IMG/VR virus record: IMGVR_UViG_3300029448_000014
Span: 1 to 64,000 of that record
From: a virus
Direction: 5' to 3' (one strand)
DNA length: 64,000 nucleotides
Positions 6,143 through 41,259 of this stretch are shown one piece after another; the first letter of the stretch is position 1, and each line of letters begins with the position of its first letter. The position numbers and the translations under genes were made by a program. A model generated the notes under the pieces. The model was not told where the DNA came from and searched no databases. It saw only the letters and a list, made by a program, of their open reading frames with translations.

Positions 6143-6156
6143 CCGGTGTTAACCGG
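6143..6156 (-). repeat. CCGG-hairpin repeat (first copy in the window)
   Basis: CCGGTGTTAACCGG with an A-tract on its left (T-tail on the minus strand). Confidence 0.8.
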
Positions 6157-6217
6157 ACCCTGATTTAATTTAGGTGAGAATAGTTTCTATAATTAATAAA
6201 GGCTATGTAATAATTAG

Positions 6218-6832
6218 ATGTTTCGTAAAGCTGGCGATATTTTTGTAGGATCAGGTCGTTATGGACAAGTTTACGAAAGCCCTATTCCAGGCAGAGTAGT
6301 AAAAGTAGGCGAAGACATACGTGGCATGGAAGATGAAGCTGCTATGCAAAGAGAAGTGGCTGAAATGGGATTAGCACCCAAGGTCACTGATGCAGGTTTA
6401 AATGATGATTACATGCCTACGATTGAGATGAATGATCTTCGTGCTAACTATGAAAAGCATGGACAACGAGCTAGAGGGTTTCCAGAGGGAATTGATGCAG
6501 TACGTGTCAATCAGCAGTTAGGTCAAATGGCTTTAAATAATATATATTTAAAAGATAGACATAACAATAATGTGCTTTATAACAAAATGACTGGCCGTCC
6601 TAAGCACATTGACTTTGGTATCGCAAATCGGGTGACTGGAGCCGATCAAGTGCAAGCCTTGACTGCAGTCACAAGCGATGGATTTGAGGCAGCTGGTATA
6701 CCTGAGATGGGTGATATGCTTCGTGGCATTGTGTATGACTACCTAGAGGGTGGTCAAGTTACAGAAGCAATGGATGTAGCAAAACAGGGATTTAGTCGTC
6801 TACAGAAAATTAAAAATATTGCCCCTCAGTAG
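6218..6832 (+). CDS. protein kinase-like (RIO/APH-type fold)
   Basis: GSGRYGQVY, VVKV, LAPKV, D-x-H-x-x-N (KDRHNNN) and IDFG. Confidence 0.8.
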   Translation: MFRKAGDIFVGSGRYGQVYESPIPGRVVKVGEDIRGMEDEAAMQREVAEMGLAPKVTDAGLNDDYMPTIEMNDLRANYEKHGQRARGFPEGIDAVRVNQQLGQMALNNIYLKDRHNNNVLYNKMTGRPKHIDFGIANRVTGADQVQALTAVTSDGFEAAGIPEMGDMLRGIVYDYLEGGQVTEAMDVAKQGFSRLQKIKNIAPQ

Positions 6833-6845
6833 AGGGGACTAAGCG

Positions 6846-7028
6846 TTACTTGGTGTATGTACGACCACGGTACACAAAAGTGCCGTGTGTTTCGTGTGAA
6901 CCAGAACCAGGTGTGTATTCAACGCCACGATAATGTGTGTCGTTAATACGTGCTAGCTCAAGCTCTTTACGAGCACGCACCATTTGCTTACGAGCAGCTT
7001 CAATGCTCATGATTTGAATGTTTGACAT
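6846..7028 (-). CDS. DUF4278 family small protein
   Basis: HYRGVEY and VYRGRTY motifs; SD GGAG; lies behind a glutamine riboswitch. Confidence 0.8.
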   Translation of the reverse strand: MSNIQIMSIEAARKQMVRARKELELARINDTHYRGVEYTPGSGSHETHGTFVYRGRTYTK

Positions 7029-7056
7029 TTGGAAACTCCATAATTGGGTGAAGATT

Positions 7057-7166
7057 CCCGTTCCTTCAGTCCTGTCTGACCTACTTGCGTCTTGTGGATC
7101 ATAAATTACAAATGGTTAACGACAAAGATATTTGTAGTTAACGAGTGATCCACAAGATGAACGTAT
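7057..7166 (-). promoter_or_regulatory. glutamine riboswitch (glnA motif)
   Basis: Minus strand CGTTCA-TCTTGTGGATC...GATCCACAAGA-CGCAAGTAGG-TCAG..CTGA-AGGAACG gives P1 CGTTC/GAACG, a long P2, and an E-loop AGTA/GAA in P3. Confidence 0.8.
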
Positions 7167-7173
7167 TACTATT

Positions 7174-8889
7174 CTAGTTGATGTCTAAGCCTTCTGAGAA
7201 TCCGAAGTCAGGAATTGTGAAACCTCCAATCTTCCAGCGACCACCACGCTCACGTGCCTGCTTCACTTTCTTTTGAAGTGTTTCTGATTCTTCCTTACGC
7301 TTAGGACTTAGATTAGGAACAGTAGCTTGCATACCAACAGAGTCAGATAATGAACCTGCACCTGCAAGTGGTGCCATTGTCCTTGGAGTAGACATTGCTT
7401 GAATTGCAGGACCAAAGTTACCAGAATCTACAGCTAACTCACGTGCATTCTTTCCTGTAGCAAGAGTGCTTGCAGTATCGATAGCACCAATTGCAGTTAA
7501 TGGTGTAGCAACAATAGAAGAAAGTGCTGATAGAGCGTTAGGTGCTTGAGTTATACCAGCTTTAACGAGTCTATCTGTTGCCATACGTAAACCACCACCA
7601 AAAACTTCACCACCAACATATCCACCACCTACAGTAGCAGCTGCTTCTCCAACCCTACCTTCGCGTAATAGTTTGGCAGCTTCTGGTGAAGTCAAAGCAG
7701 CACCTGCTATACCCATACTTCTACCTTTTACAAACTTAGAATAAGCAGACTGCTTAGGAGAAGCTGCTTCGGGAGTCATTTGAATATAAGCATCAGATTT
7801 TTCAGGCAGAGGAATATGATTAGGTTCAAATGGATCATTATTTTCTTCGAGTAATGAGCCCCAGCCAATACGTGATTTAGTATTTGGTTTCATATTTTTA
7901 AGAGTGAACTCTTCAACCGTAGGAACTTTTCCAGTAGCTCTACCAGGATTACCAGATACAGGATGAGGTGATGCCAAATCTTCTACAACTCTAAATTCAG
8001 ATTTACCTGTAGCATCTGAGATTTTTTTAGTTAAGTCTGATAAGTATTGAGAATTACTAACGTATCCTTTAGGTTGTGGTTTTAGTCCAAGTTCATCTGC
8101 AAATTGATAAAGATCAGCAGCAGTTGTCAATCCTCCTATACGTCTACTTTCACTGCCAAACATTATGTTTTGCGATGAGTCTTCTACTCCCCATGTAGGG
8201 CGAACACCTTTAGTTGCTGCTTCATTAGCACCACCTGTATATAAATACTTTCCTTTTTCAGAAGGTTGTAAATCAGCTCCACTAAAGTGAATAGATGGGT
8301 CAGCCGTGCTTAGTTTACCAGCAGCATAATTGTTATCTGCATAAGAGTAAACAGGATTACTTCTGTGTCCCCAAAGGGTGTTAGAAGTTTGAGCACCAGC
8401 ACCTTGTTGCATTCCTTCTTTAACACCACCAAACCTAGAAGAAGTCGCTGTTGGTGTGACAGTGGCAATTGATTCTAAGCCATCTGAGTTTCGTAGATTG
8501 GTTAGATAACCTCCTCTTTGCGATGTGTCAGGTGGAATGAAGTCGGTTCCTTTGAATGGGAGCTTACGTGCTGGATTAAAGTAACGACCATTTTTAATGT
8601 AGTCAGCTTTTAATTCAGGATCTAAACCAGAAATATCCTTAGCAAAATCGAGACGATCAAACGAATCTGTATAGTCAGAATTGTTTCTAGTGTTATTAAA
8701 TATTTGTGCACCACCAAAACCCATTCCACCAATACCGGCATATAAAGCCTGCTCTCCTGCAAATTTCTTTACAGCATTTAATCTGCGTTGCCCTTCTTTG
8801 GTAACTATTGGTTGGCCGTTTGAGTCACGGCGTGATTCAGGATTGCCTCCTGGTCCATAGTAAGCCTTAAACTCAGGAAACTTTGACAT
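7174..8889 (-). CDS. large Gly/Ala-rich hypothetical protein (virion-like)
   Basis: 571 aa ORF; no recognised catalytic motif. Confidence 0.7.
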   Translation of the reverse strand: MSKFPEFKAYYGPGGNPESRRDSNGQPIVTKEGQRRLNAVKKFAGEQALYAGIGGMGFGGAQIFNNTRNNSDYTDSFDRLDFAKDISGLDPELKADYIKNGRYFNPARKLPFKGTDFIPPDTSQRGGYLTNLRNSDGLESIATVTPTATSSRFGGVKEGMQQGAGAQTSNTLWGHRSNPVYSYADNNYAAGKLSTADPSIHFSGADLQPSEKGKYLYTGGANEAATKGVRPTWGVEDSSQNIMFGSESRRIGGLTTAADLYQFADELGLKPQPKGYVSNSQYLSDLTKKISDATGKSEFRVVEDLASPHPVSGNPGRATGKVPTVEEFTLKNMKPNTKSRIGWGSLLEENNDPFEPNHIPLPEKSDAYIQMTPEAASPKQSAYSKFVKGRSMGIAGAALTSPEAAKLLREGRVGEAAATVGGGYVGGEVFGGGLRMATDRLVKAGITQAPNALSALSSIVATPLTAIGAIDTASTLATGKNARELAVDSGNFGPAIQAMSTPRTMAPLAGAGSLSDSVGMQATVPNLSPKRKEESETLQKKVKQARERGGRWKIGGFTIPDFGFSEGLDIN

Positions 8890-8915
8890 AAGGACTACAA
8901 CTACATGATCTTATT

Positions 8916-9125
8916 TTAACGGTTGAAATCAAACTCAAATACGCAGCCTTGTAACGTTGGTTTGATACCAAGTAAGCACTCTTGGTCAAGTTCTCCTTGA
9001 CCTGCCCATTTCTCTAAAGTGAAGACTACAGCAGAATGTAGCGCCCGAACACTCCGCTCGTTCATCGTAAATGTGATTTCTGTTTGCTCCATAGATAATA
9101 GTATATCTAATGTGTATCTTGCCAA
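8916..9125 (-). CDS. hypothetical protein (true start may be ATG at 9089)
   Basis: Short ORF following the polymerase gene. Confidence 0.55.
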   Translation of the reverse strand: MARYTLDILLSMEQTEITFTMNERSVRALHSAVVFTLEKWAGQGELDQECLLGIKPTLQGCVFEFDFNR

Positions 9126-10408: not shown

Positions 10409-10484
10409 CTAGTTTCTCCATAATTGATTAAATCTAAATTTGAGTTTTTCTCTTCACCAGGTTTATTAGTAGAAAGCTAATTTG

Positions 10485-11024
10485 TTAGGCATAGTCGTTC
10501 ATTCTGCGAAGCATTAGTTCATATAATTTGACAGTAACTTCTGTATCTTGAATACAGTAGTCAAGCATTTCTGGTGTGTATACATCCCAGGCAGCTTCGT
10601 GTTTACCGAAGTCACCTTTAAAGCACTTAAGGCGGTAGCCCCATGCTTCTAGACTATGTCGTCCATAGAGTTTTTGTGGCATACCGTAAGGCCTACGCTC
10701 TTGATCTCGCTCCATGATGTGTGGATAAAATAATCTGCTAAGAACAAGCGTGTCGATAGCTTGTCCTTGGAAATTAAAATCATACGCTTCTTTGATTAAG
10801 GGGATGTCATAACCAAGAATGTTATGACCAATGAGTACATCTGCACGACATAGAGTATCAATGCCATCATCAATATCAAGACGTGGAGCGTCCCAGACAA
10901 TTGGTTTATCAGCTTGACTTAGGTCTCGTGCGACAATACAGTGAATTTTAGATCCACGGCGAAGTAAGCCCGTTGATTCCAGATCAAAAAGTAGTGCTTT
11001 CTTGGTCATTGGTTTGTTCGTCAT
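10485..11024 (-). CDS. 3'-5' exonuclease domain of the family A polymerase, encoded separately
   Basis: FDLES, GHNILGYD, HSLEAWGYRL and YCIQD; start at 11024 or 11009 is more likely than 11168. Confidence 0.9.
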   Translation of the reverse strand: MTNKPMTKKALLFDLESTGLLRRGSKIHCIVARDLSQADKPIVWDAPRLDIDDGIDTLCRADVLIGHNILGYDIPLIKEAYDFNFQGQAIDTLVLSRLFYPHIMERDQERRPYGMPQKLYGRHSLEAWGYRLKCFKGDFGKHEAAWDVYTPEMLDYCIQDTEVTVKLYELMLRRMNDYA

Positions 11025-11568: not shown

Positions 11569-11618
11569 ATCTCACATATAGAGTCGGTTGTTTCTATATT
11601 AGATAGGCAGGCTAATAA

Positions 11619-12014
11619 ATGAGACATATGGATTACGATGAGTTCAAGAAAGAATATAAAACATATATGGAAAATGATATGTGGAATTTCAACCAAGAGG
11701 AAGATTCTATTGAGCCTGAAGGTGTTTCGAGACTTACTGATTTTTTAGAGCGTCGTAACAAAGTAGTTTCATTATCTAAAAACTATACAAGTCCAAACGA
11801 TATGGTCAACAGTCCTGCACACTACACTCGTGGTAGTCAAGAGGTTATTGACATTATCGAGCAAGCTATCAGTGACGCACCCAGTAATACAGAAGGGTAT
11901 TTACAGGGGCAAGCACTGAAGTATTTACTTCGTGTTTGGCTGAAGGATAATCCGAAACAAGATTGTGAAAAAGCTATGTGGTATATGAATCGATTAATTG
12001 ATAAGCTCGACTAA
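11619..12014 (+). CDS. DUF3310 / T7 gp1.7-like nucleotide kinase
   Basis: DMVNSPAHYT..EVIDII..GYLQGQALKY..R...K...D..KA.WY. Confidence 0.85.
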   Translation: MRHMDYDEFKKEYKTYMENDMWNFNQEEDSIEPEGVSRLTDFLERRNKVVSLSKNYTSPNDMVNSPAHYTRGSQEVIDIIEQAISDAPSNTEGYLQGQALKYLLRVWLKDNPKQDCEKAMWYMNRLIDKLD

Positions 12015-12035
12015 GACAGTGCCGGCGTTAGCCGG

Positions 12036-12455
12036 CTAACATCGTTGAAAGTATAGATTACCATCAGCATGTGAGAGAGATTCGAACTCTTGAATATGGG
12101 GGCTAATTTTTTCTAATACAGTTTTAGTGTCTATAGAGGCGTGTCGAAAGGTACATGCATAACCCTCGGCAAAAGGGTGATGCTCGTGTATTGGTATGTA
12201 CCACATTAAAGGTATTAAACAATCCCATAGTTCTAGGCCTTGCGATGCCCAGCAATTAAGCTCTTCCAATCGAGCCGCTGTTTTGATGATATGGGCTTCG
12301 TGAGCTTCAGTTTCAGGTAGAAACAGTTCTTGGTAGGGAGATACAAGAGCATGTCTCCACATAATTGTCCCATCCCGATGTATTAGCCGGGAGTGATGCA
12401 CTTGATTTCCAGAAGGTAAAGTGTAAAAAGAAGAAGCTACGAGATGCTTAACCAT
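12036..12455 (-). CDS. peptidase M15A-like fold, apparently inactive
   Basis: W..A...LP.....HII..A.RLE and WY.P are present; the SxHxxGxAxDF box reads HPFAEGYACTF. Confidence 0.5.
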   Translation of the reverse strand: MVKHLVASSFYTLPSGNQVHHSRLIHRDGTIMWRHALVSPYQELFLPETEAHEAHIIKTAARLEELNCWASQGLELWDCLIPLMWYIPIHEHHPFAEGYACTFRHASIDTKTVLEKISPHIQEFESLSHADGNLYFQRC

Positions 12456-13463: not shown

Positions 13464-13495
13464 AATTGAATGACTCTTTAATAAGGATAAGTAAT

Positions 13496-14311: not shown

Positions 14312-14312
14312 A

Positions 14313-14549: not shown

Positions 14550-14569
14550 TTTAAAAAAAAATATATTGT

Positions 14570-17950: not shown

Positions 17951-17952
17951 AA

Positions 17953-18978: not shown

Positions 18979-19069
18979 TTTTTCAAATCACCTTTCTTTG
19001 AAGCGTTTCCAGAGCGTTAATCGCTTCAGCTACACTCATTAAAAAAGCCGGTGCTAACCGGCAGTATTA

Positions 19070-19729
19070 TTAGTAATCTGGCGTCGGATCAAGTTCTGTA
19101 TATCCTACTGCTGAACCACTTGATTGTGGATTATTAGACTGACGTTGCTGATCAGCTCTGGTACTAAAGTCAGTTGCAACAATAGCTCGATATGGACTAT
19201 CTGAATCATCTTTACGATATTCGCGAAGATAACCTTGGACGCAAATAGCACGACCTTTTCGGCACCTTTCAGTTAGCTTTTTCTTACGTGATTCGTGAGT
19301 CTCTAAGTAAAGCCAGGTAGTGACACTAGAGTTATCTAGTGAAGTACCGATTTTGACAGCAATTTGACTATTCTTGCGTTCTTTAATTTCATCGCTACCA
19401 AAGAATGCATTTCCAAGAACGACTTGATTGCAATACATATCTTGTGGGATATTGGTTTCTATCGTAGTGATAATCAGATCCAATGGCTTAGATGTATCGT
19501 CACTAAAGTGAATGTTGCCAGTCACTAAAGCTCTGGTGCCTGCTTTCCAGTTTTGGAAAGTTGTAAGTTTGGCACCGGCTTTGTCGTAACAGAGTAGACG
19601 TAGTTTGACCTCTGAGCCACTGTTACCAGCGGGCACAATAGCGTCAGCACCCCGATAGTCCAACCCATAAGCGTTGATTGGATCGTTAATGGGAGATTTG
19701 AATTCAACGGTTGCTGCTATAAAGTTCAT
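19070..19729 (-). CDS. SSB-like protein with tandem OB folds
   Basis: RKGRAICVQGYLREY, G.RALVTG and an acidic tail. Confidence 0.65.
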   Translation of the reverse strand: MNFIAATVEFKSPINDPINAYGLDYRGADAIVPAGNSGSEVKLRLLCYDKAGAKLTTFQNWKAGTRALVTGNIHFSDDTSKPLDLIITTIETNIPQDMYCNQVVLGNAFFGSDEIKERKNSQIAVKIGTSLDNSSVTTWLYLETHESRKKKLTERCRKGRAICVQGYLREYRKDDSDSPYRAIVATDFSTRADQQRQSNNPQSSGSAVGYTELDPTPDY

Positions 19730-24842: not shown

Positions 24843-26864
24843 GCTTTGGTTCCATCTGTGTAATAGAAACCTCCTAAGCAGTTTCTACTATTTGATACAA
24901 TCACGTTCCTATTATGCTTATAAGAACGCATACCATGATGATAAACTAACATGACAGGTTCACCGACATTTACGGTGTCAAGTCTGGAACACAAGATAGT
25001 TTTTATCTCGTTTGGTTTACGTTTGTATTGCATCTCTGCTTCATAAGCAAGATGCTGAGTCTCTTCCAACGTATTTGAGTTAAACACAGCTACCATATGT
25101 GGTTTAGACACAGGGATAGCTTCCATCTCAGTGATGTAAGGGTTCATGATTTTGTAGTAATCAAAGGTTCGTTGTATTTATCAATTTGAGAAGTTACAAC
25201 TGTGTTTCCCATCCAACGGTTGTAAGCATCAGGCAGTTCGATCATGAGCTTGCGGCGCATGTCAGACTGCATATGACTTTTAAGAAACTCAAGCAAGAGT
25301 TCTTTTTGTAAGTACGTTAGAGGTTCTGTCATTAACTTTTAAAAGTGATGCTTAGGAATGCTGCGTCATCTAGTAGTTGTTTTCGTACTTCACCACTTTC
25401 AACATCAGAGCCACGAAAGTGATACTCAGCTACATTTTCAAGGTAGTAATTAATTTCGTTGTGGACATGGTCATCCAGTGATGCCATGAGAAACGTACGA
25501 AAGTTTCTTTGTTGCACTTGATTGAGTGTCATAAACTGTCAGTGATGATTGATTGTGCTGCTGCGTTAGAACTTGCTTCGTTGGGACGCACAAGCTTCAA
25601 CGGAGGCAGATACTTTTTCTCAGCAAGATAGACTTCGATTTCTTCTCGCATTCCAGGATATTTAAAAGCGTCAAGACGCCCAAGTATTTCGTTGACATAG
25701 AACGAAGGAAGCTCTGGTGAGTCCTGGGCCAATGCTGCGTGGCACAGGCATACGAGATCGAACAGCTCATAATCTGGAATTTTGATTGTTGTAGACATTT
25801 AATAGCTCGTAGTATTCTTTTGGATTTTCAGCAAAGTGATCGAGCATTACAAGCAGAGTTGCAACAGTTGTCTCACGTGTATCGATGGGAAGGTTAAGAA
25901 GTACGGCGGTTAGATTCCTCCGTACGTTTCTCAAGCGTCCGACAGTGTCAGCTGTCATCCTCTTGTTCTTTCTTTAGTAGATTTAGTTGTTCTTTGGCAT
26001 AATGACTAACGACTTCGTCTACAACATCCTGAAGATGTTCAGCATCGAACCATTCAAGAGCCAATGCACAGACAGAACGACGTGTTGCCATATTCATAAC
26101 CGGGTAGTTTTCTACTAGATAAGAATTAATATCAAAAGAAAACTCCCGATCGTAATCAGGATTAATAGGCATCAGAAATCTTTTACAACTTCGGTCACAA
26201 CAGTCTCAATAACATTTTGTGGTGAAGTTTCAGAAAGTGCAGTATTGATAAGTGTTACAGCATCACGCATAAGAGCGTCAGTTTTTGCCTTGTCTTTGTC
26301 ACTACGTGCTTCCGTAAGTGCTTGATACATATCATTGCTAGTCGCTTTAATGCCACCATTGCGGACAGCAGCAAAGCAAGGCTTCATTGCTGAAGTACCT
26401 TTCCAGGTGTCGATGGCAATGAAGCTATTCAGTGATTCGCCTTCGAACAAGCCCATAAGGCTAGTCATGAGGCACTGAGACCAAATAGTCACCAGACCAG
26501 AAGTAAGCATGACAGTGCGGTCGCTTTGCGTTGTCAAAAAGACATTGAGCTTGCTACCGCTGAAGCCTGCTTCAGCATATACGTCATCAACAATGCTTAG
26601 ACCAGTCAGCCGGACATTACCGATGCGAGATACAGGTTTACCTGATGATTCAAGTAGTGCAACTTTTTGGTCATCACCTACGTACTGGAAGTAAACAGCT
26701 TCACTATCCTTGACTAGGCCAACGCCAATCATGAGATCTACAGATTGTGTTGCTTGTCCTCCAAACTCGGCAACGATTGAAGCGGTTTCGACAGAAGGAT
26801 TAGCAGTTGAAATAACAGTCATTTTATTTTTAGATAGGTTGAACGACTGCCCCTTAAGGGGCAT
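24839..26864 (-). CDS. array of 7 coupled hypothetical genes (24839-25147, 25144-25332, 25332-25532, 25529-25798, 25767-25958, 25948-26172, 26172-26864)
   Basis: Overlapping start/stop codons on one strand; no recognised domains. Confidence 0.6.
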
Positions 26865-26897
26865 TAATGTAAACAGCCGGCGTTAGCCGGCATAGGG

Positions 26898-27068
26898 TTA
26901 TACGGTTGGCGTTAACTCACCAGCAAGCTCAGCTTGTTTGGCAACAGCTAAACACTCAATGATTTTCCAGACCATTTCACCAGATAACTGATGAAGATCA
27001 CATGCATACTCAATCGTGTCTTCGATCACCTCGGTGAGTTCGTTCAACACGTCTGAAGAAATTTTCAT
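26898..27068 (-). CDS. small cyanophage hypothetical protein (not in the ORF track)
   Basis: MKISSDVLNELTEVIEDTIEYACDLHQLSGEMVWKIIECLAVAK; flanked by two CCGG hairpins. Confidence 0.65.
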   Translation of the reverse strand: MKISSDVLNELTEVIEDTIEYACDLHQLSGEMVWKIIECLAVAKQAELAGELTPTV

Positions 27069-27181
27069 TTAGCTCAAGATATAATTTGCTTTAGCCCTTT
27101 CGGACACTTTTAACTATAGCCGGCATTTGCCGGCCATGGGCTGCTACTTTGATGAATTAAATATTAAGTATCAGCTAGTTG

Positions 27182-30304: not shown

Positions 30305-31276
30305 TCACGCAGTGACTAAGTCACGTGCAACAGCAAAAGCACGCTTGCTAATCTGTGCTCCAGCACCGAAAGTGCCACGTGCAAACTGAGCGCGACCCTT
30401 GGCAGCTGTAGTGCCACGAGTGCTTGTTTCTACCTGGGTGATGGCATTAATACCATTCCAGAGACTATCTGGTGCGTAAGCAATAGCGCCGTAGCCTTGT
30501 TGAAAGGCACGCTCAAGCGCTTGACGTTTACGGAAGACTTGACCTTCGTCAATATTGTAAACCTCGTCAAGAAATTCGTTGAATTGATTGAGGTTCATAG
30601 CTTCACGAGAAAACTCACGCATCAAGTCACACTCAGTCACAAAGTCTTGACGTGCTACATCAATACTCTCAATAAGAGCATCAAAGTTGTTGTTAGCACC
30701 ATTCTTGTGAGTGATGCTGGAGTGCGCACCGCTCTCACCAAGTGCTGCAGTCAGTGTGTTCTGACAGACAACACGGATGTTGGTGAACTTTGCGCCACAG
30801 CCAGTCTTGCCGTCGTGTCCTAAGTAACCGACGATGCGACGTTTTACTGTGTCACCAGGGACGATGTCCGTCTCCGCACCACGGAGTGTGGCGGTAAAGC
30901 AGACTTTGGCACCATCCGATAAAACGATGACGCAGTCCATGTCTGCCTCTTCGCGGATGAACTCAGCCATCCGAAGGAGCGAATCGTTTTGGACGATTTC
31001 GTATTGCTTGGAGACGATACCGAGCAAAGCTTGGGTGTCAGTGCGGACAACTCCGAATGTACCTGTTGGACGAAACTCGTCGGAAGGGAATTCGTCTTCG
31101 TTGTAGGCAGCTGAGACAGTGATTGGTAGTTGAAGCTCTCGCTTCTCGACAGTAAAGAGTGCGTCTGCAGTTTCAAACGCTTCTCGCGCCGGAAGTGTGC
31201 CTGTTGTGACGACACCCATGCCGTGCCAAGCCTGTTCCGAGTTGCCGAGCCAGCCAGATGTGAAGTTTGAGGACAT
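30305..31276 (-). CDS. DUF932 family phage/plasmid protein
   Basis: AWHGMG, Y.IVQN, HDG, IRVVCQNTL, H and W..INAIT. Confidence 0.85.
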   Translation of the reverse strand: MSSNFTSGWLGNSEQAWHGMGVVTTGTLPAREAFETADALFTVEKRELQLPITVSAAYNEDEFPSDEFRPTGTFGVVRTDTQALLGIVSKQYEIVQNDSLLRMAEFIREEADMDCVIVLSDGAKVCFTATLRGAETDIVPGDTVKRRIVGYLGHDGKTGCGAKFTNIRVVCQNTLTAALGESGAHSSITHKNGANNNFDALIESIDVARQDFVTECDLMREFSREAMNLNQFNEFLDEVYNIDEGQVFRKRQALERAFQQGYGAIAYAPDSLWNGINAITQVETSTRGTTAAKGRAQFARGTFGAGAQISKRAFAVARDLVTA

Positions 31277-31326
31277 AGGATTAGATCCATATATACGATT
31301 TACCCCGATTGGGGCACATAAAAAAA

Positions 31327-31346
31327 GAGCAGCCGTTAGGCCGCCC
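31327..31346 (-). terminator. TAAC-loop terminator
   Basis: Minus strand GGGCGGCC-TAAC-GGCTGCTC-TTTTTT. Confidence 0.65.
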
Positions 31347-31405
31347 TTATTATGTTGATTTCAGACTTACTTGTATCAATGAAATATCAAAATGTTCAGA
31401 CATAT

Positions 31406-32250: not shown

Positions 32251-32259
32251 AGATGGAAA

Positions 32260-32808: not shown

Positions 32809-32860
32809 CAGCTTATCCTGCTAATAAAAAGTGTAGATTAATCTTACTTCCTATTTTAAC

Positions 32861-33439: not shown

Positions 33440-33515
33440 AGTATTTCACTTTGCTAGTAAAAAGTGTAGATTAATCCCAATTCCTATATTAACTTAGTAT
33501 TTAAGCAAAGTGATA

Positions 33516-33586
33516 CGAGACATACCAGATTCGAACTGGTACAAACTGCGAATAGGCAGTCGTGATAGCCATTTCACTAATGTCCC
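33516..33586 (-). tRNA. tRNA-like gene with a 6-nt anticodon loop (identity undetermined)
   Basis: GGGACAT-TA-GTGA(AATGGCTA)TCAC-G-ACTGC(CTATTC)GCAGT-TTGT-ACCAG(TTCGAAT)CTGGT-ATGTCTC-G. Confidence 0.75.
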
Positions 33587-33590
33587 AATA

Positions 33591-33641
33591 AGAAATGGGG
33601 AGGAATTGCACCTCCCCTAGTTTCAGCTATCTGTCATCTCT
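33591..33641 (-). ncRNA. tRNA-like minihelix (acceptor stem + T-arm)
   Basis: AGAGATG...GGGAGG(TGCAATT)CCTCCC-CATTTCT. Confidence 0.4.
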
Positions 33642-33859
33642 TAGTTAAGGTGACTTTCTAAAGTTTGCAAAATATCGCGCATGGTTGCACGTGCAAAGCC
33701 ATTAGCACCTATAACAGATTCTGTTGGTTCAGTTTTAGTATGGTAAAGCTCATATTTCGTTAAAAAACGAGCTTTTTCACAGTATGTTGCTGATTCATCT
33801 AGCTGCATGATGAGTTTCTCAACAAGTGGTCGAGAGATACGAATCATCTCTGGTTCCAT
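33641..33859 (-). CDS. hypothetical protein
   Basis: Follows the CCGG hairpin at 33895. Confidence 0.6.
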   Translation of the reverse strand: MEPEMIRISRPLVEKLIMQLDESATYCEKARFLTKYELYHTKTEPTESVIGANGFARATMRDILQTLESHLN

Positions 33860-34152
33860 GGCTGTTACCTGATGTTGGACACAAATATCGAACCCCGGCG
33901 TTAGCCGGGTAAAGCTACTAAATTTGTGTACTTAATCAATGGAAAATTAATGAGGCAGTGATACAGCCTACAGAAAAGCCTGAAAATAAGCTCAACACAA
34001 TTGTAGTACTCATTAAATCAATAGCTGCTATTTATTTAATTTAGCGTTGATTTTTGCCGCTTTCTTAAGTATTTTCTGCCCTGTTTTGCGATCAACACAG
34101 TGGGCAGCTAAATTCATTACTTTAATTAATTTTGCGTATTGTTTGGAGTAAT

Positions 34153-34677
34153 TCATAGACCATAAGCATAGGTTAATTCGGGGTGTTTATCCCAATATTC
34201 GTTGTTAGTATTCAGTTGAATAGTATCAACACCCTGTAGTTCAGCACCACGGATATTGGCTGGTGAATCATCAAACAATGTACCGACCATGCGGTATTTC
34301 TGTTGCAAGTATTGAATCATTGCCTGCTTAACAACACTAGAGGTTTCACCTTCGGTACTAAGTAAGAGTACGTCAAAGGGTATGTTGTTTCGCTGTAGCC
34401 ATTCAAAGGTTTCAGGTAAACGACTTGAAGGCCTTGCAGTTGCAATAGCAATGGCGTCACCAAAGCTGTGCAGCATTTGAACTAACTCAACCATAACGTT
34501 ATTTGCTGGAAAATTACGCGAGGCATCAAAGAACAAGTCTTTAGTCATGCCAGCGTTGTTAAATCCAGCAGGTTTACAAGTAAGAGTGTCATCAACATCA
34601 ATTACGTGCACGACTTGATCCTTAGAGGGATCAGTCATTGAAAGTCCTGTGAACAGGTCGCTTCCGATTGTATTCAT
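34153..34677 (-). CDS. HAD-family phosphatase (PNK 3'-phosphatase-like)
   Basis: DVDDTL, TAR, K and FDD motifs. Confidence 0.85.
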   Translation of the reverse strand: MNTIGSDLFTGLSMTDPSKDQVVHVIDVDDTLTCKPAGFNNAGMTKDLFFDASRNFPANNVMVELVQMLHSFGDAIAIATARPSSRLPETFEWLQRNNIPFDVLLLSTEGETSSVVKQAMIQYLQQKYRMVGTLFDDSPANIRGAELQGVDTIQLNTNNEYWDKHPELTYAYGL

Positions 34678-34870
34678 AAATAAATTTCAAAGTTCATTGA
34701 GATTAACAGCCGGAGTTATTCGGCATTGACTGTTCTTAGACGACATAAATGCCTTTGCTTACTAATAAGCAAGCGTCTTAATTTGTTTTAGTTAGTTATA
34801 CAAACTATCTAAAATAAAGAGGTAAGTAAGTAATACCTAGATGAATAAATAGTCATAGGTATGTGTATGG

Positions 34871-36034
34871 GTGCAGATCAATCCTGGGTATAGAAGTAAT
34901 TTGTCCAATAGGGAAATTGCTCGTATCAATACGTTATCTCCAACAAAAAGGGCTCAGATTCGGCATAGTTTGCAATATTCAAACAATGATGCGCTTGATG
35001 ATTTATTGCGTAATTACGCTGGTGGAACAGATGATCCTGTGATTCAATTATTGTTAGATCAAGAATTTAAGGACGCAATAGTTCACGGTGCTTCTGGTGA
35101 AGGATATAGGTATCAAGATACTAAGCCTGGAACAAGAGGCGAAGGTAATGGTAAATATCTATTGATGGCCGATAAACCTACGGATTACGGTCCTGAAGAG
35201 CAGGCTGCATTAGAAATTCTTGCATTAAGAAAAGAACTTGACTATGTACAGGGTGGAAGGATTGATCCTATTGACCCTGAAAGCGCCTTATACCAAATGA
35301 TTGCTCGTCACAATGCTGCTAACATTAGGCCTACTTCAATTAAAGCAATAGGTGAAGGAGGCATTGATAAAGACAGAAGAATGCATCCTGATTTGCCACC
35401 TCAAACTCTTGCAAATGCTACTGTTGCAACTAATAACCAATTAATAGACAATTTACTGGGTAACGAAAGGTACGAACAATCAATTACCGATGTAGATAAA
35501 AATGGTATTAGAAGCGGTATTCCAGTAGAGCATAAACTTTCATTTGATGGTCATGAAGCTTTAGGCAGGGAGCCAAGTAACAGAATGCTGGGAAGTACAG
35601 TTAAAAACAGTGTACTTAGATCAGAAGGTGATCCATACCGCCAGCAAATATTGTTACTTAGAAAAGCTGCAGAACTTGAAGACGCTTTTAGATTAAATCA
35701 TGGTAGAGATGTAAGGGAATATATGGTTGATAATGATTGGGATTATAAGCCTTATCAAACAGTTATGCCAAAGCTTGAGGATTTCGGTACAGTAGATAAA
35801 GGCGCAAGAAAGTTAACTTCTGACAAATCTATTATGAAATCCCCATTACGAATGGCAGGTACTCGACCTGAAATGGTAAGACTTGCTTCTGGCAAACGTT
35901 ACGAAAGCCCTGGAGAAAGTAAGGAGCGTGGCCTCTATGTGGATAGTGGCGGTGGTGATGTAACCATTGGAGAAGGCGCTCTTCGAAGCAATGGTAATGG
36001 CAACGGTAAGCGTAAGAATGGCAATGGCCACTAA
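34871..36034 (+). CDS. hypothetical protein (lone plus-strand gene)
   Basis: 387 aa ORF ending at a CCGG hairpin. Confidence 0.7.
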   Translation: MQINPGYRSNLSNREIARINTLSPTKRAQIRHSLQYSNNDALDDLLRNYAGGTDDPVIQLLLDQEFKDAIVHGASGEGYRYQDTKPGTRGEGNGKYLLMADKPTDYGPEEQAALEILALRKELDYVQGGRIDPIDPESALYQMIARHNAANIRPTSIKAIGEGGIDKDRRMHPDLPPQTLANATVATNNQLIDNLLGNERYEQSITDVDKNGIRSGIPVEHKLSFDGHEALGREPSNRMLGSTVKNSVLRSEGDPYRQQILLLRKAAELEDAFRLNHGRDVREYMVDNDWDYKPYQTVMPKLEDFGTVDKGARKLTSDKSIMKSPLRMAGTRPEMVRLASGKRYESPGESKERGLYVDSGGGDVTIGEGALRSNGNGNGKRKNGNGH

Positions 36035-36092
36035 AGGCAAGGCTGTTTAAATAAAAGTAAAAAAGCCTCCGGTGTTAACCGGAGGTGCAGGA

Positions 36093-36545
36093 TCAGAAGA
36101 CGGGAGATTCGTCAATTACAGCTTCTGCTGGTTGAGCGTCTGCTGGTCGTACAACAACGCCAGTCTTACGTACAGCATTCTCAACTTTGTCCTTAGGCAT
36201 AGCACCTAAGCCACCAGTTGGGACTTGAACGTCAAGCATCTCAATTGTAGGACGCTTAAGCATTACAACTTCACCTTGTGAGTTAGTGTATGTTTCTGCA
36301 ATGGACTTGATATGTCCAGTGAGAGTAATCATACGACCTACAGGGAGTTTGCCATTGTTGTACAAGGCAAGCAAACCGTTGCTATTCAAGAACTTGATGT
36401 TTGCGCCTTCGTCATCATTCATAAAATTCGTGATGACAGTGACGGCGATAAACTCTCCGTTCCGTCCATTCACCAAGTCAATGTTGCTAATGCGGCCATT
36501 GACGGTGAAAGTGTTAAATGCAGCGTAAGTTTTGTAGTCTGTCAA
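36093..36545 (-). CDS. SSB-like OB-fold protein
   Basis: N..TV.GRI, G..ITLTG.I and C-terminal DESPVF. Confidence 0.7.
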   Translation of the reverse strand: MTDYKTYAAFNTFTVNGRISNIDLVNGRNGEFIAVTVITNFMNDDEGANIKFLNSNGLLALYNNGKLPVGRMITLTGHIKSIAETYTNSQGEVVMLKRPTIEMLDVQVPTGGLGAMPKDKVENAVRKTGVVVRPADAQPAEAVIDESPVF

Positions 36546-36613
36546 GGTTGTTACCTGTTAGTTGGACATGAAAAAACACAACCGGTGTTAACCGGAAGTG
36601 TTGGGTTAGGGAT

Positions 36614-36853
36614 TTAGACTTGGGCTAAAAAAGCACCAGCGTCATGGATTTTCTCGCCAACAATGGCAAGTACAAGTCCGACGTTGTTAACGCCACCACG
36701 GCAGCGTTGACGTACTTCTTTCCAATCGACCTGCTTAATCCAGACAATAGTGTCTGATACAGGAGGGAAGCTTTTAAATGCACCTTCGTCAAGTGACCAC
36801 TCAGGGTCGCCACTTACGATTCGTGCATTAGCTTCAAAGTCTGAACTAGTCAT
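36614..36853 (-). CDS. hypothetical protein (start corrected to MTSSDF)
   Basis: The longer ORF-track call runs through the hairpin at 36888. Confidence 0.6.
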   Translation of the reverse strand: MTSSDFEANARIVSGDPEWSLDEGAFKSFPPVSDTIVWIKQVDWKEVRQRCRGGVNNVGLVLAIVGEKIHDAGAFLAQV

Positions 36854-37018
36854 CAATTTATTGATTGAAGAACAAGAAAAAACACAGCCGGTGTTAACCG
36901 GCGTGTATTTCAAAGGTTTCTTCCATTGGTAAGAGTGGCAGCAAAGCCAATCCACACAGTGGTGCTTCAAAATTAAGAGCTAAAGTTAGTGCAGCATAAA
37001 ATGTGATTGCGATACGGT

Positions 37019-37381
37019 TCAAGAGACATTGCAATCGCAAGGGTCTTCACCGAGATCTACTTTATCGAGGCATGAATATGCTATATGAATAAGCTTTTCA
37101 TCACCTGCCCATAGTAGGCAAGTATCATCTTTCTCACTAAACTTCTTGTCAGCTATAACATCGTGCCATGCACCTAAGTGACTAAGGATGCGAAGACCAA
37201 GAGCTTTTGCAGCAATTGGACCTGGATGATCTTCTTGAAGTGTTTCTATGAGTGCATCAATATATACATCTAAATCGACTTTAGCTCCGTCAGAAGTTTC
37301 TGCAGGGACAAAGTCTGGTTCAGCATCGACTTGAAGACTGAGCAGCTGATTTCGTGAAATGCTGTCAGGTATGAATGTCAT
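37019..37381 (-). CDS. hypothetical protein
   Basis: Cassette gene after the hairpin at ~37414. Confidence 0.65.
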   Translation of the reverse strand: MTFIPDSISRNQLLSLQVDAEPDFVPAETSDGAKVDLDVYIDALIETLQEDHPGPIAAKALGLRILSHLGAWHDVIADKKFSEKDDTCLLWAGDEKLIHIAYSCLDKVDLGEDPCDCNVS

Positions 37382-37439
37382 TATTTATTGACTAAGAACA
37401 TAAAAAACCAAGGCCGTCGTTAGATCGGCCAAGGTTGGA

Positions 37440-38570
37440 TTAAAACGGAAGGTGGACTATTCCACTCCCGTTATGTATGTACAACAAAGGTTCAATGTTG
37501 TGATTCTTACGAAGGGAGTGAGCTGCATGTGTAGCTAAGTCCTTATCTCCGTAAGGTAGTACATTTGTAGACCCACGGGGGGTCTTGTACTGCAGGTAGT
37601 AGGTCATCAAGGATGAGGCCTCCTGCATGTTCGAATGTCTTCGTCGTAGTCATCATAAAGACTTTCAATCCACGCAAGATGGACTGCACGTCTATGCTCT
37701 ACATTTTCGCGCCACTCAGAAGTACCGGGATGGTCTTCAGGATCTAGCGCAGGTTCATAAGCCATATTAGATAAACAAAGGATATGAAGTTGTTACGCCT
37801 CAGACGAGGGATGTGCTCAATTGAGCCCAACCTGCATCGGAAATAAAGTTTCCGACGTTGTCTGTAAAGAGTGGAGCGGAACCATCTGGTAGGACGGCGC
37901 ACTGTGCCTCTTCAGTGAGGTAGTTGTAAGCATCTTCGTTTAGAGGCATAACCAACGAGAGTCCAGGAATAGCTGTGTTGCTAATGATCTGGAAGTCTGT
38001 GGTTACTGCCATTTAGGTTTTGAAGTTATAGAACATTAAAACCAACTCCCGGTATTAACCGGGAAGGCTGTGAGGTTGTTCAGGCTGTTATTTAGCAAAC
38101 CTGCTTGTTTCTATTTATAGCACCTATTTCTTACTGGTATTTACCTGAGCCGGTCCTATTACGTGAGAATCCGTACATAAGGACAACAGCAGTTGAGGTA
38201 ACCCCTATTAGCCCAATTACAGCGAGAATAATGTTTGATTCAGAGAAGATCATGGTTATAGATTAAAGTTCGTTAAAACCTATGACCGGCGTTAGCTCGG
38301 CAAAGGTTGGTTTAGAGTTAGTTTGGGCACCTACTTGTTTCTATTACCGCATTTTTATAAGCCCGCTACCCAACCGCTATTAATGCAGTTAGTAATGACT
38401 TGATGAGCTTCATCGTAGGTAATAATACCTTCGTGAGCGGCAATATTTAGCTCGACAGCTATTTCATAACAGATGTTAGAAGGCTCATGTTCAATGACAG
38501 GTATTTCTATGGGACTAGCAGTTACGGGAGCAACTATTAGCAATAGCCATATACAAGGTAGAAGCATCAT
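37440..38570 (-). CDS. several small early hypothetical genes (including 37440-37628, 37800-38012 and 38355-38570)
   Basis: Short ORFs in hairpin-bounded units. Confidence 0.5.
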
Positions 38571-38649
38571 AGTGTTCTTTATAGTGGGTTCTTTATATTG
38601 TCTTAATGTCGCCTAACATTTACAATAGGCGTATGTACATCATACGAAT

Positions 38650-39015
38650 ATGCGACACAAATTAAGAGATAGAATAATGTCCGTCGGACGGAATATACGC
38701 AACTTCGATGATGCATACAGTCAAGAGATTGCGCAGATGTACGAAGGAGCTAATCCAGTCGTAAGAGCTGCCAGTTACATGGTAGGAGGAGCACATCCTT
38801 CATTTCGGAAAGGCGAATTGAGTAAAGGGATGGGTCCTGAAACACGTAGAGAGCAGATGCTACGTAACGCGATGGAGTACGGGGTACCAGCAATGAACGC
38901 TGTCCCCAAATACGTAGTACCAGTCGCCGGAGTGACGCTGGCAGGGAGGGGGTTGATTGATCTAACGAATGCGTTCACCAATCAACAGACCCCAAACACT
39001 GTTATGCCTGACTAG
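38650..39015 (+). CDS. hypothetical protein (lone plus-strand gene)
   Basis: TACAAT box upstream; ends before the hairpin at 39045. Confidence 0.65.
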   Translation: MRHKLRDRIMSVGRNIRNFDDAYSQEIAQMYEGANPVVRAASYMVGGAHPSFRKGELSKGMGPETRREQMLRNAMEYGVPAMNAVPKYVVPVAGVTLAGRGLIDLTNAFTNQQTPNTVMPD

Positions 39016-39111
39016 ACATAGCTACCAAGCATGTAAAAAAGAGCCCAGCGTTAGCCGGCCTCTTGTGAACTCCTAATCTTGAGTAAATTAGGAGACGATT
39101 AGAAATATGTC

Positions 39112-40519
39112 CTACGCAGCTACTGGTGGAGCAGCTTCTGTAGGAACAGTAACCGTCTGCTTATCAGCATCGTTCTTCTTAGCTTTGTTAGCGTCTGCTT
39201 GACGAGCAAGAGACTTGGCATAGCTGAAGGAGCCACCAACGACAACACTGTCGATGGAGCCATCTTCTTGTTGAAGTCCAACGTCGAAAATGTCGTACTG
39301 AGAATCAGTAGTGCCGACACGCTCGAAAAGACGGACAGAAACATCTTGTCCAGGGATCTTGAAAATCATATGCTTAATAACGAAGTGAACTGCTCTGATA
39401 GAGCATAAAAACCATGCCCGGCATTAGCCGGGTAAGGTGGCTGTTCAAACAGAGAGCAGTTCAAGCTCTTGCTGTAGATGGCTAGGTAGCTCAGTAGACC
39501 ATGGGTCATTGAGAAATACCTTCTTATGAATTGGCTTAGTAGGTACTAGTCCAGGTTCATAGCCATAGCTGATCCATGACTTGTAGCAAGAGCGAAGCTC
39601 AGCTAACGAAGCAAAGGCTTTACACGAAGGTTTGCAACCGCCAAAGGCGAAGAAGCAACCGTCGTCAGTCTGAACGAAACGCCAGACAGAAAGACCTTGC
39701 TTGGTCATTTTGGATACAACAGCTAAATTAGTCATTTGAATTTATGAAAAGAACACTAATAAGAAAACCCGGCGTTAGCCGGGGTAGATAGTTAGGAACC
39801 TATCACCACCATCCAAAGGATGACAGTGAAGGTTAGTAAGAAATAGATGATCAAAGGTACTTAATAGATACACAGTATTTAGTTGTGCCAGAAAAGCCAC
39901 GTACAGATATCAATGTATGAGTAGTGGATTGAGCTTGACAATCACGTGAGGCAATCTCATTGTTCATTGCAGTAAGAGGAATGAGTGAGATAAATCCCAT
40001 GGTGATGCCAAACAAGATGGCGGAGGAATACTTGAACATTAGTGAAAGCAAATGATTACATAGAAATAGAAGCCCGGTATTTGCCGGGCAATGTGTCAGT
40101 TCCCGTTGAGGAACTCAGCAATTTCCCAGTCGTAGTCTGCTTCACAAGCGAAGTAGCGACCGTGGATGGTACAAGGAAATGTACGCTTAGTAGGAGACGT
40201 AGACTGATGAACTTCACGTTCAGTCATTCCAGTCTGCTGCATTATGTTAGTCACATAAGGATTAGTGGACATAGTAGTTAATGAGATATAGAACAATAAA
40301 AAACACAACCGGCATTAGCCGGAGTGTTGGCAGTTGTTAGAAAGGGATGTCAGTGTCGTTGGGAGCAACTATCTTGTGGACACTGGTTTCAGCGTTTACA
40401 TCTTCGTATGTAGCAGCATATGCATCTGCTTCATCGCGAGAGTTGAACTCGAAGTAGTTGTCCTCGGCGTAACCATCGTCACAGGACATGGTACTTACAC
40501 GACACATGTAGATAAACAT
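39112..40519 (-). CDS. five single-gene cassettes (39112-39369, 39445-39735, 39851-40039, 40096-40272, 40337-40519)
   Basis: Each ORF starts about 35-50 nt after a CCGG hairpin. Confidence 0.65.
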
Positions 40520-41259
40520 AGTAGTTAATTGATTAAGATCACAAGACATAGAGCCGTTGTTAAACGGCGAAGGGTTATGGATGTTCGGTAGGTGTGGTAG
40601 GAGAATATACTTATGGGTAACTGATTGAGACTAAGGATCACTTAAGAAACACACAAGTATTGGGTAAATGTTGCAACGGAAGTAAGACTTAAGTTGCTAA
40701 TTGCAATAACTTATGTGAACGCAAGATGGAAACGAAAGTTAATTCGTAAGAAAACTTATGCATGATACGAAATCGTATCGCAAAAGAATTAACTTGAGTT
40801 TACTTGCGTGAATCGTGAGTGAAATCGTAAGTGTAACTTACGGTTGATCGAACAAATGCATACGTGAACGAGCGAAGCGAGTGAACAACTGTAGTTATAC
40901 ACTAACTTTTAATCGTAAGTGCAAACGGTTGTTATAACGGCTGTTCTTCCCTTTTTTTTGTTTGAGTAACCTGATGGGTAGTGAGTATATTAGACCAGTC
41001 GAGAAAATCATATTAATTTACGGTTCCTATAGGGTTTTTTGTCAATAAGCCGCGTGCGTATATAACTATAAAATATTTTTTCAACTTTTTTGCCGCCCAT
41101 AGAAAGTTTCTTGCCAAAGACTCACGTGCTCTGCTTATTTGGCAAACGAATGTTCGTCCACTACCTAACTCATACCGACTACGGATAAAGGCTGTGTTTT
41201 GATACCCACAAATTCCACAGATAGTGCATGTTTGCGCAATTTATTGGAGTCGAGCACTA

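Follow-up and report, generated by a model that had tools for sequence, protein, structure and literature searches.

A repeated UAAC-loop hairpin between early genes of an S-EIV1-related cyanophage lineage: a possible terminator, restart signal and recombination joint

Among the stem-loop elements described in phages, the nearest counterparts of the one considered here are the PeSL cassettes of T4-type phages, in which a stem-loop is followed by an early sigma-70 promoter, a Shine-Dalgarno sequence and a start codon (PMC4122927; PMC2839356). PeSLs are described as dense in hyperplastic regions and as lying at the joints of insertions and deletions (PMC4122927). They were also sought in the cyanomyovirus S-PM2, where their presence was judged unlikely (PMC4503421). 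A full-text search of the literature found no such cassettes in cyanophages among the matches listed. Here, we describe a short hairpin with CCGG arms and, in most copies, a UAAC loop, which is repeated between the early genes of a 64-kb window (positions 1 to 64,000 of the IMG/VR record IMGVR_UViG_3300029448_000014) taken from a 73-kb viral contig, referred to below as G000. The reading that we favour, and to which we give about half of our belief, is that in this S-EIV1-related cyanophage lineage the hairpin works as a terminator to which a restart signal of a non-standard kind for the following gene is fused, and that the same unit doubles as a recombination joint.

Scans against PHROG and Pfam recognised in the window psbA, ribonucleotide reductase, thyX, a MazG-like pyrophosphohydrolase, a primase-helicase, an integrase, the large terminase, a sigma-70-family gene and a DNA polymerase A that is split into two genes. 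An uncultured marine cyanophage lineage with an integrase, a split polymerase and psbA has been described, its closest isolate being S-EIV1, and a relic prophage in a Synechococcus genome is also reported in that paper (bioRxiv 10.1101/325100). By its predicted genes, the window matches this S-EIV1-related lineage. The paper on this lineage makes no mention of a hairpin, terminator, promoter, sigma factor, stem-loop or palindrome. A 750-amino-acid (aa) virion protein of the window has its sole match in the phage collection in Synechococcus phage S-EIV1, at 44% identity. Leftward genes occupy the minus strand from about 7 to 40.5 kb, and the rightward virion block starts at 41.4 kb; the two divergent blocks are separated by a region of about 850 nucleotides (nt; 40568-41416) which is free of open reading frames (ORFs).

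Five relatives (G001-G005), all IMG/VR records, were found by scanning viral contigs for the hairpin together with TGTTC; they hold 14, 21, 8, 4 and 6 strict copies, respectively. Core genes are syntenic in G000, G001, G002, G003 and G005, with 65-85% nucleotide identity. In the block of small genes these five genomes have almost no DNA in common except the cassettes.

A selected hairpin and its distribution

A first-pass annotation of the window, made from the letters alone, had reported about 19 copies of a covarying hairpin, and all 19 listed sites are indeed present on the minus strand. The exact pattern CCGGNTAAYNCCGG matches 11 times, always on that strand, with 0.00 matches expected from 100 shuffles, and the looser CCGGN6CCGG occurs 14 times against 0.09 expected in shuffles. 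The covariance model proposed as a check in that annotation was built from 86 copies from the six records (G000-G005), after removal of 6 of the 92 major-strand candidates, which were chance-like or duplicate. At a cut-off of E<1e-3 it gave 20 matches in the window, lying between 6133 and 40577, every one of them on the minus strand, the sense strand for the leftward genes. Eighteen of these fit the model by construction; the two from outside the training alignment lie at 37404-37438 and at 31320-31353, the latter being a new, 20th copy (hairpin 31327-31346). The model found no match at 41-64 kb or in the last 9 kb of the contig, which confirms the reported lack of copies in the virion block, where shuffles also predict zero. 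S-EIV1 had no hairpin either, in a census of its first 50 kb or by the covariance model over all 79 kb. The CCGG arms are perfect at 14 of the 19 listed sites. At the other five we found one A.C mismatch (34710), two mismatches (38286), a G.U pair (39045), a one-base bulge (37414) and a CCGT/ACGG stem (40554), the last being the compensatory stem described before, which was read directly.

As defined by the 86-copy alignment, the element consists of a UAAC tetraloop on a 6-bp stem, N-CCGG-N. The 20 window copies carry the loops TAAC (14), TAAT (3), AAAT (2) and TAGC (1) and the closing pairs C-G (11), T-A (7), A-T (1) and C.A (1), so that the earlier account of a mostly TAAC or TAAT loop with a covarying closing pair was accurate. 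Across the 86 copies the closing pair is CG in 51, UA in 21, AU in 4 and GC in 3, and the outer pair is GC in 46, CG in 18 and AU in 9. Compensatory double changes of the inner pairs (CCGT/ACGG, CCTG/CAGG, CCCG/CGGG, CTGG/CCAG and CCGC/GCGG) were observed as well, and compensatory changes affect 5 of the 6 stem pairs. Pairing is present in 80% of stem cells versus 66.7% in shuffles, and the covariation score is 0.376 versus 0.127, a value matched by none of 500 shuffles. When the partner is shifted by 1-3 columns, pairing falls to 26-48%, and beyond 6 bp there is no fixed-register pairing. The hairpin is the minimum-energy fold in 18 of 19 copies, with energies of -8.1 to -17.2 kcal/mol and z-scores of -2.2 to -6.1, the exception being the copy at 34710. 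These results show that the hairpin, with its fixed loop, is a selected structure, as had been proposed.

Watson-Crick pairs fill 492 of the 516 stem cells; the remainder comprises 7 G.U pairs on the sense strand, 6 A.C combinations (G.U on the antisense strand) and 11 other mismatches. The wobble pairs thus name no strand, a point already made in the first-pass annotation, and their balance agrees with very strong selection that keeps the stems perfect, with pairing of the DNA itself, or with the decay of copies that are otherwise homogenised by recombination. C(UAAC)G is among the 30 special tetraloops of the Turner-1999 table shipped with ViennaRNA. Together with the possibility that recombination at the repeat of about 45 nt could homogenise the copies, this weakens the earlier premise that ordinary terminators need no fixed core or loop.

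The five cyanobacterial genomes with the closest psbA genes gave one hairpin match in about 11 Mb, and 121 genomes of one picocyanobacterial family gave 32, not above a reversed-pattern control. Mimicry of a host terminator was therefore rejected, all these genomes being at control level with the exception of one island in G090. There (G090:C1, about 1,700,000-1,735,000; loci L121-L122), three covarying copies lie within 5 kb in an island of low GC (0.44-0.49 versus about 0.56), and one of the three forms a full cassette, with TGTTCT and an ATG. The island holds homologues of window genes, including the primase-helicase and an exonuclease. It is probably a prophage or relic of the window lineage and is reminiscent of the relic prophage described for a Synechococcus genome (bioRxiv 10.1101/325100). 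As far as predicted copies go, the hairpin is private to this phage lineage, that is, to the window phage, five related viral contigs and one prophage-like island. Avoidance of CCGG as a restriction site was rejected separately: 97 sites are present versus 77.6 expected, 31 of them inside hairpins.

Termination, restart and exchange of cassettes

Past the stem, the mean number of T residues in 9 nt is 5.55 on the sense strand versus 3.00 on the antisense strand, and at least 6 T of 9 are found in 42 of the 86 copies versus 2 of 86, respectively. In the window, a T run of at least 5 is present in 10 of the 20 copies, and one of only 2 in the copies at 12022, 27120, 34710 and 40554. The loop, the downstream T tract and the genes share one orientation. 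In most copies the nearest stop codon of a long ORF lies within 18 nt of the core; the TAA of the loop may itself be the stop codon in some, and some such calls are probably off-frame artefacts. Terminator-like sites at 33.5-41.8 kb number 23 versus 5.6 +/- 2.6 in shuffles, and they are mostly these hairpins. Five copies (39045, 36069, 19048, 12022 and 6143) have no same-strand start behind them and stand at operon ends or convergent junctions; in four of the five a U6 tract follows the stem directly. With a stop codon 0-18 nt away and a T-rich tract, the hairpin looks like an intrinsic terminator, and since the five operon-end copies are terminator-only, the hairpin itself needs no exotic function. 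We propose that the GC stem with its UAAC loop would form on the sense RNA near the stop codon and, with the U-rich tract next to it, act as a predicted intrinsic terminator or attenuator of transcription, and that at operon ends and convergent junctions this stop half would work alone.

Behind 15 of the 20 window copies a start codon stands at a fixed distance, 32-36 nt past the core in 11 and 48-54 nt in four, three of these four having a second hairpin in the leader. Across the six records an ATG is found 28-37 nt past the core in 45 of the 92 candidates, with a mode of 32. The spacer is T-rich with 9.5% G, yet G occupies core+15 in 28 of the 45 cassettes (P = 5e-18), in a TG(T) box that lies 13 nt past the core and typically reads TGTTCT, TGTCCT, TGTAAT or TGTCAT. 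Both the spacing to the start codon and the TGTTC motif had been recognised in the first-pass annotation and were recovered here. No Shine-Dalgarno sequence was detected: at positions -17 to -1, G is present in 0-9 of 45 cassettes per position, with no GGAG-like motif. Most T-rich-preceded TGT[TC]C[TA] sites on the gene strand of the small-gene block sit behind a hairpin, and only those preceded by a hairpin were seen directly upstream of a start codon. A search for the loop-to-box geometry at gene starts lacking a hairpin gave nothing convincing; one such site occurs in the G002 control region.

Several considerations argue, if indirectly, that a restart signal is needed. Cassette 1 (core 40554-40567) has only ORF-free DNA upstream; the cassette at 34710 is preceded by a gene on the opposite strand and by a U6 terminator; the ten window copies with U runs of at least 5 would be hard to read through; and the geometry of box and start codon is fixed. 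The second half of the unit would therefore most likely serve the following gene as a start signal of a non-standard kind. Fixed spacing joins the hairpin to the TG(T) box, the G-poor leader and the start codon in about three quarters of the window copies. The sole promoter-like geometry places TTAACA or CTAACG in the loop and TGTnnT downstream, exactly 17 nt apart, so that the loop may be a weak -35-like element and the box its -10-like partner.

The third part of the reading concerns exchange. Early-region protein families shared by G000, G001, G002 and G003 are ordered differently in these genomes, with hairpins at the joints. The polynucleotide-kinase-like family F9 follows F8 in G000, lies between F6 and F7 in G002, follows F27 in G003 and is absent from G001; families F16 and F25 also swap places. 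At the F9 cassette, four genomes have unrelated DNA ahead of the hairpin and become similar from the hairpin onward. Six homology blocks between genome pairs start 0 to 5 nt before the core and none ends at its 3' edge, which indicates that the hairpin travels with the downstream gene. Cassette-only matches (32-53 nt, 83-94% identity) join non-orthologous sites and span from about 11 nt before the core to 20-35 nt past it; since they extend past the hairpin, the repeat unit is about 45-50 nt long and not the hairpin alone. Between G000 and its closest relative, G005, a homology boundary lies within 50 nt at 5 of 7 hairpins versus 20 of 74 hairpin-less junctions (one-sided Fisher p = 0.027), and within 10 nt at 3 of 7 versus 11 of 74 (p = 0.095). 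The pattern in the aligned genomes shows that single-gene cassettes were gained, lost and moved at hairpin joints, and the repeat unit may have supplied the short homology for such recombination. Thus, the copies do bound single-gene cassettes, as described before, and the suggestion that they serve as joints for gene shuffling was upheld by the order changes and by the position of the homology boundaries, the enrichment of boundaries being modest.

A number of observations weigh against the combined reading. The -10-like TGTnnT lacks the A at position 2 which sigma-70-type factors require, TGT or TGA is absent from the expected place in 10 of the 45 cassettes, and a start site about 7 nt past the box would leave a leader of only about 6-8 nt. 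Sigma-70-like sites at 33.5-41.8 kb number 10 versus 20.1 expected, none of them behind a hairpin, and a promoter scan of the whole window found no consensus sigma-70 promoter behind any hairpin, in line with the earlier remark that there is little room for a full promoter, the available stretch being 32-36 nt. With Turner-2004 energies UAAC receives no bonus and ranks 159th of 256 loops; the wobble pairs carry no RNA-strand signal; copy 12022 has no U tract on either strand; and the modest breakpoint enrichment comes from seven hairpins and one genome pair. Consensus promoters are in use elsewhere in the lineage. The gene of the phage sigma factor (59988-60982, plus strand; regions 1.2, 2, 3 and 4) lies inside the virion block, and in all three genomes with the gene (G000, G005 and G002) it is preceded by a consensus promoter, TTGACA-17/18-TATAGT or TATTAT, the copy in the window being the best consensus there (TTGACA-18-TATAGT). 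The product is 61-62% identical to two host-type group-2 sigma genes of G090, which makes a private specificity unlikely. Finally, we infer both termination and initiation.

On these grounds, the phage sigma factor, a captured group-2-like copy of a host gene, is unlikely to be a private reader of the box. Its gene is absent from S-EIV1; co-occurrence with the hairpin was judged in four genomes, as G001, G003 and G004 do not cover that region. No match to an RNA polymerase family was found among 37 ORFs compared with PHROGs and 18 compared with Pfam, and the largest window ORF has 750 aa. When early ORFs were scanned for basic 18-aa windows, as expected of an arginine-rich N-like peptide, small basic ORFs were found in G001-G003 and G005, none of them common to the window genome. 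The earlier interpretation was thus supported in part: cassette boundaries and a crossover role stood, and no candidate for a factor reading the hairpin was found among the scanned ORFs. Three other likenesses were dropped: to promoters of extracytoplasmic-function (ECF) sigma factors (AAC ... CGT/GTT), with a spacing 1-2 nt too long and a phage sigma factor that is not ECF; to -24/-12 promoters of sigma-54, with the wrong spacing; and pairing of the box with the 16S 3' tail, the box being too far from the ATG.

A bolder version of the restart half, which we regard as rather improbable, would make the cassette a phage start signal of a new class: a gene's terminator would itself carry the upstream promoter element of the gene behind it and offer it to a reprogrammed host RNA polymerase. 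The UAAC loop with its closing pair would then be the -35-like TTAACA or CTAACG, with TGTnnT exactly 17 nt downstream, and host RNA polymerase would read this signal only after reprogramming by a small early phage protein. The same protein might also be loaded by the hairpin in its RNA form, in a boxB-like manner, which would make each joint a timed stop/go switch.

A comparably low probability is given to the view that the hairpins are attenuators or terminators only, lying within one or a few long transcripts which start in the control region at 40.6-41.4 kb and proceed by read-through or antitermination. Passage would be secured by ribosomes stopping 0-18 nt from the stem, which would block folding, or by a UAAC-binding factor acting in the manner of N on boxB, and the U-rich, G-poor spacer with its TG box would be a translation start region without a Shine-Dalgarno sequence. 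The terminator features of the copies agree with this view, as do the stop codons within 18 nt of the core, or in the loop as TAA, in most of them, the failure to find a consensus promoter behind any hairpin, and the G-poor leader devoid of a Shine-Dalgarno sequence. A further point in its favour is that UMAC loops adopt a GNRA-like fold and occur both in ribosomes and in boxB RNAs of phages, one example being the CUAACC loop of the phi21 boxB, which is bound by its N peptide (PMC12550061). Such a view leaves unexplained, however, the fixed distances of 13 nt to the box and 32-36 nt to the start codon. It would place a terminator before the first gene at cassette 1, it fits poorly with the cassette at 34710, which follows a gene of the opposite strand and a U6 terminator, and among the early proteins no convincing N-like, arginine-rich one common to the genomes was found. 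Moreover, known nut sites are few per genome and are not terminators themselves.

Somewhat less probable still is an element of RNA processing or stability. Host RNase E, or another enzyme, would cut one long early transcript within the U-rich spacer, for instance close to the TG box, and each upstream message would end in a stable tetraloop hairpin that blocks 3' exonucleases, resulting in one stable message per gene. The compact and very stable hairpin directly after stop codons, followed by a single-stranded U-rich spacer with one conserved G-containing box at fixed distance, would suit this scheme, and copy 12022, which lies between convergent genes and has no U tract, fits a 3' protector better than a terminator. 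On the other hand, the stem is far too short for RNase III, the TG box was matched to no published RNase E motif (no cleavage-motif test was made), and neither the U6 tracts that mark operon ends, a classic feature of terminators, nor the fixed distance from box to start codon would be accounted for.

Could the hairpin act instead as DNA, in the form of a cruciform or a single-stranded hairpin used as a recombination or nicking site, or as an N4-style promoter, its main role being to move cassettes? The near-perfect Watson-Crick stems with balanced G.U and A.C, which are expected if both strands pair, point in this direction, as do the homology blocks starting at the core, the permuted cassette positions among relatives and the single-stranded-DNA-binding-protein (SSB)-like lead for ORF 36093-36545 (score 0.92, a lead only). 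We nevertheless hold this to be very unlikely in view of the strict strand bias of the loop (UAAC, not GUUA, on the gene strand), of the T tract and of gene orientation, of a 6-bp palindrome that is short for cruciform extrusion, and of a largest ORF of 750 aa, with no polymerase family match in the scans described above, in place of a giant virion RNA polymerase; in addition, the promoter hairpins of N4 have 3-nt loops.

If a terminator fused to a restart signal and serving as a recombination joint is the right description, a unit of about 50 nt for stop, start and exchange would account for the logic of expression in this widespread, uncultured and possibly temperate marine cyanophage lineage as well as for the quick turnover of its small early genes. 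In picocyanobacterial infection, the non-standard TG box would then point to a promoter or processing signal missed by current consensus models. Its small size suits the unit to direct reporter constructs.

Individual copies and neighbouring features

The copies are described here in the direction of transcription, all on the minus strand. Cassette 1, the first of the block (40517..40567; core 40554-40567), has a CCGT..ACGG stem, a UAAC loop, a TGATCT box and ATG 40519. The cassette at 40270..40322 (core 40309-40322) has a U6 tract, a TGTTCT box and ATG 40272, 36 nt past the core. It is followed by that at 40037..40087 (core 40074-40087), with an AAAT loop, a closing C.A, a TGTAAT box and ATG 40039, and by that at 39733..39782 (core 39769-39782), with a TGTTCT box and ATG 39735. 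The leader is longer at 39367..39431 (core 39418-39431), where a U5 tract and a TGCTCT box precede ATG 39369, 48 nt past the core. The terminator-only copy 39045..39058, with one G.U and a U6 tract, is convergent with the plus-strand ORF 38650-39015. Next comes a degenerate cassette at 38251..38299 (core 38286-38299), with two mismatches, a bulged fold and ATG 38253, and without a TGT box.

The cassette at 38010..38062 (core 38049-38062) carries a UAAU loop, a TGTTCT box and ATG 38012. In the bulged-stem cassette 37379..37427 (core 37414-37427) the C(UAAC)G loop is intact and is followed by a U6 tract, a TGTTCT box and ATG 37381. A stem of about 11 bp, a U6 tract, a TGTTCT box and ATG 36853 characterise the cassette at 36851..36901 (core 36888-36901). 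That at 36543..36595 (core 36582-36595) combines a U6 tract and a TGTCCA box with a TTG start at 36545; its leader is paralogous to that of the cassette at 33857..33908 (core 33895-33908), which has a TGTCCA box and ATG 33859 and where G005 homology starts 3 nt before the core. Between these two lie the terminator-only copy 36069..36082, with an 8-bp stem and a U6 tract, convergent with the plus-strand ORF 34871-36034, and the weak cassette 34675..34723 (core 34710-34723; ATG 34677), whose hairpin has an A.C mismatch and is not the minimum-energy fold. The latter cassette restarts the minus-strand genes behind the opposite-strand gene, and there, too, G005 homology starts 3 nt before the core.

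The new 20th copy (31274..31346; hairpin 31327-31346) has an 8-bp stem with two G.U pairs, a UAAC loop and a U7 tract, then a second hairpin beginning TGTG, and ATG 31276. Double-hairpin cassettes were also found at 27066..27133 (core 27120-27133), with an AAAU loop, a second small hairpin from the TG box and ATG 27068, and at 26820..26890 (core 26877-26890), with a second hairpin at 26848-26863 and a probable ATG 26822, which the automatic offset missed and which was assigned manually with the help of the reading frame and the G005 orthologue. The second small hairpins starting from the TG box thus lie at three sites, 26848-26863, 27092-27105 and 31298-31316 (minus strand). At two of the three they covary at the orthologous position, the window having TGCCCC..GGGGCA versus TGCCTTCGGGCA and TGTCC..GGACA in relatives.

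The last three copies have no cassette. The terminator-only copy 19048..19061, with a UAGC loop and a U6 tract, lies 8 nt past the stop of ORF 19070-19729. The copy at 12022..12035, which lies between the convergent ORFs 12036-12455 (minus) and 11619-12014 (plus, DUF3310), is a hairpin only, neither strand having a U tract, and is conserved in G001 and G005. The last minus-strand copy, 6143..6156, is terminator-only, with a 10-bp stem and a U6 tract, and G005 homology resumes 9 nt downstream of it.

The ORF-free control region at 40568-41416 contains 19-nt repeats ending AATCGTAAG, at spacings of 81 and 88 nt, and several inverted repeats, and it shares 68% identity with G002 over 40785-40995. 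The region may serve as an origin or hold a set of binding sites for a regulator. At G002 positions 709 and 77847 (loci L026 and L029), the same cassette with its flanks is present at both ends of the 77.9-kb record, which indicates terminal redundancy and thus a complete, circularly permuted genome.

Other features of the leftward block were noted as well. A glutamine riboswitch (Rfam RF01739; 7055-7165, minus strand; 39.5 bits, gathering score 35) precedes the 60-aa ORF 6846-7028. A tRNA-like gene at 33515-33587 (minus strand) has an abnormal two-base anticodon according to ARAGORN, and a terminator outside the hairpin family, 33597-33617, stands just upstream of it on the transcript. The early ORF 36093-36545 (minus strand; family F8), conserved in G000-G003, has no Pfam or PHROG match; its SSB-like assignment is a lead from ESM Atlas, with a score of 0.92 to viral SSB clusters. 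A weak Imm51 lead from the same source (0.77) was obtained for ORF 37019-37381. The 571-aa ORF 7174-8889 (minus strand) gave no PHROG, Pfam or PDB-sequence match, and the 387-aa ORF 34871-36034 (plus strand) no family match; both adjoin hairpins and are uncovered by G005 DNA matches, and therefore look like recent insertions. Megablast of 36-41 kb against the phage collection gave no match, nor did a related-locus search with a 355-aa protein.

Comparison with known systems

Hairpins reused within one phage genome have precedents. Tuerk and colleagues are reported to have described, in 1988, C(UUCG)G tetraloop hairpins in intercistronic regions of T4. That case has in common with ours one extra-stable tetraloop hairpin reused between the genes of one phage; the loop is of the UNCG type there and UAAC (UMAC-type, GNRA-like) here, and our element further differs in its fixed arms and in its link to a downstream box. 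The stoperators of cluster A mycobacteriophages likewise form a numerous set of short, oriented sites, placed in intergenic gaps along one direction of transcription. They are asymmetric duplex sites for a repressor, however, and need no pairing, whereas the compensatory changes found here show a folded hairpin. The hairpin promoters of N4 are served by a giant virion RNA polymerase and have 3-nt loops; in the window no such polymerase was matched, and the loops have 4 nt.

With boxB of the nut sites the element shares a small hairpin, a GNRA-like loop that contains UAAC, a place on a phage early transcript and a setting of termination control (PMC12550061). Lambdoid phages have one or two such sites, next to boxA; an arginine-rich N protein reads them, and they are no terminators. 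The window has 20 copies, themselves terminator-like and half of them with U runs of at least 5, and an N-like protein was not found in the scan of early ORFs.

The closest likeness is to PeSLs. In both cases, a repeated stem-loop, the start signal of the next gene and a start codon are combined at fixed spacing, the elements are dense in plastic regions of small ORFans and rare in the virion block, and they lie at joints of insertion or deletion, replacement and displacement between related phages. A stem-loop immediately upstream of the start signals of the next gene, as in PeSLs, is present in 15 of the 20 window copies. The reports on PeSLs describe a sigma-70 promoter (-35, N17, -10) and a Shine-Dalgarno sequence, whereas the unit studied here has 32-36 nt with no TAnnnT and no Shine-Dalgarno sequence, and its only promoter-like geometry puts the -35 inside the loop. 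Stem and loop are also far more uniform here, with CCGG arms and a UAAC loop, than in PeSLs, and the carriers are an S-EIV1-related lineage with a cyanobacterial host in one case and T4-type myoviruses in the other. The unit thus works like a PeSL and departs from it in three defining features, namely the sigma-70 promoter, the Shine-Dalgarno sequence and the T4-type carrier.

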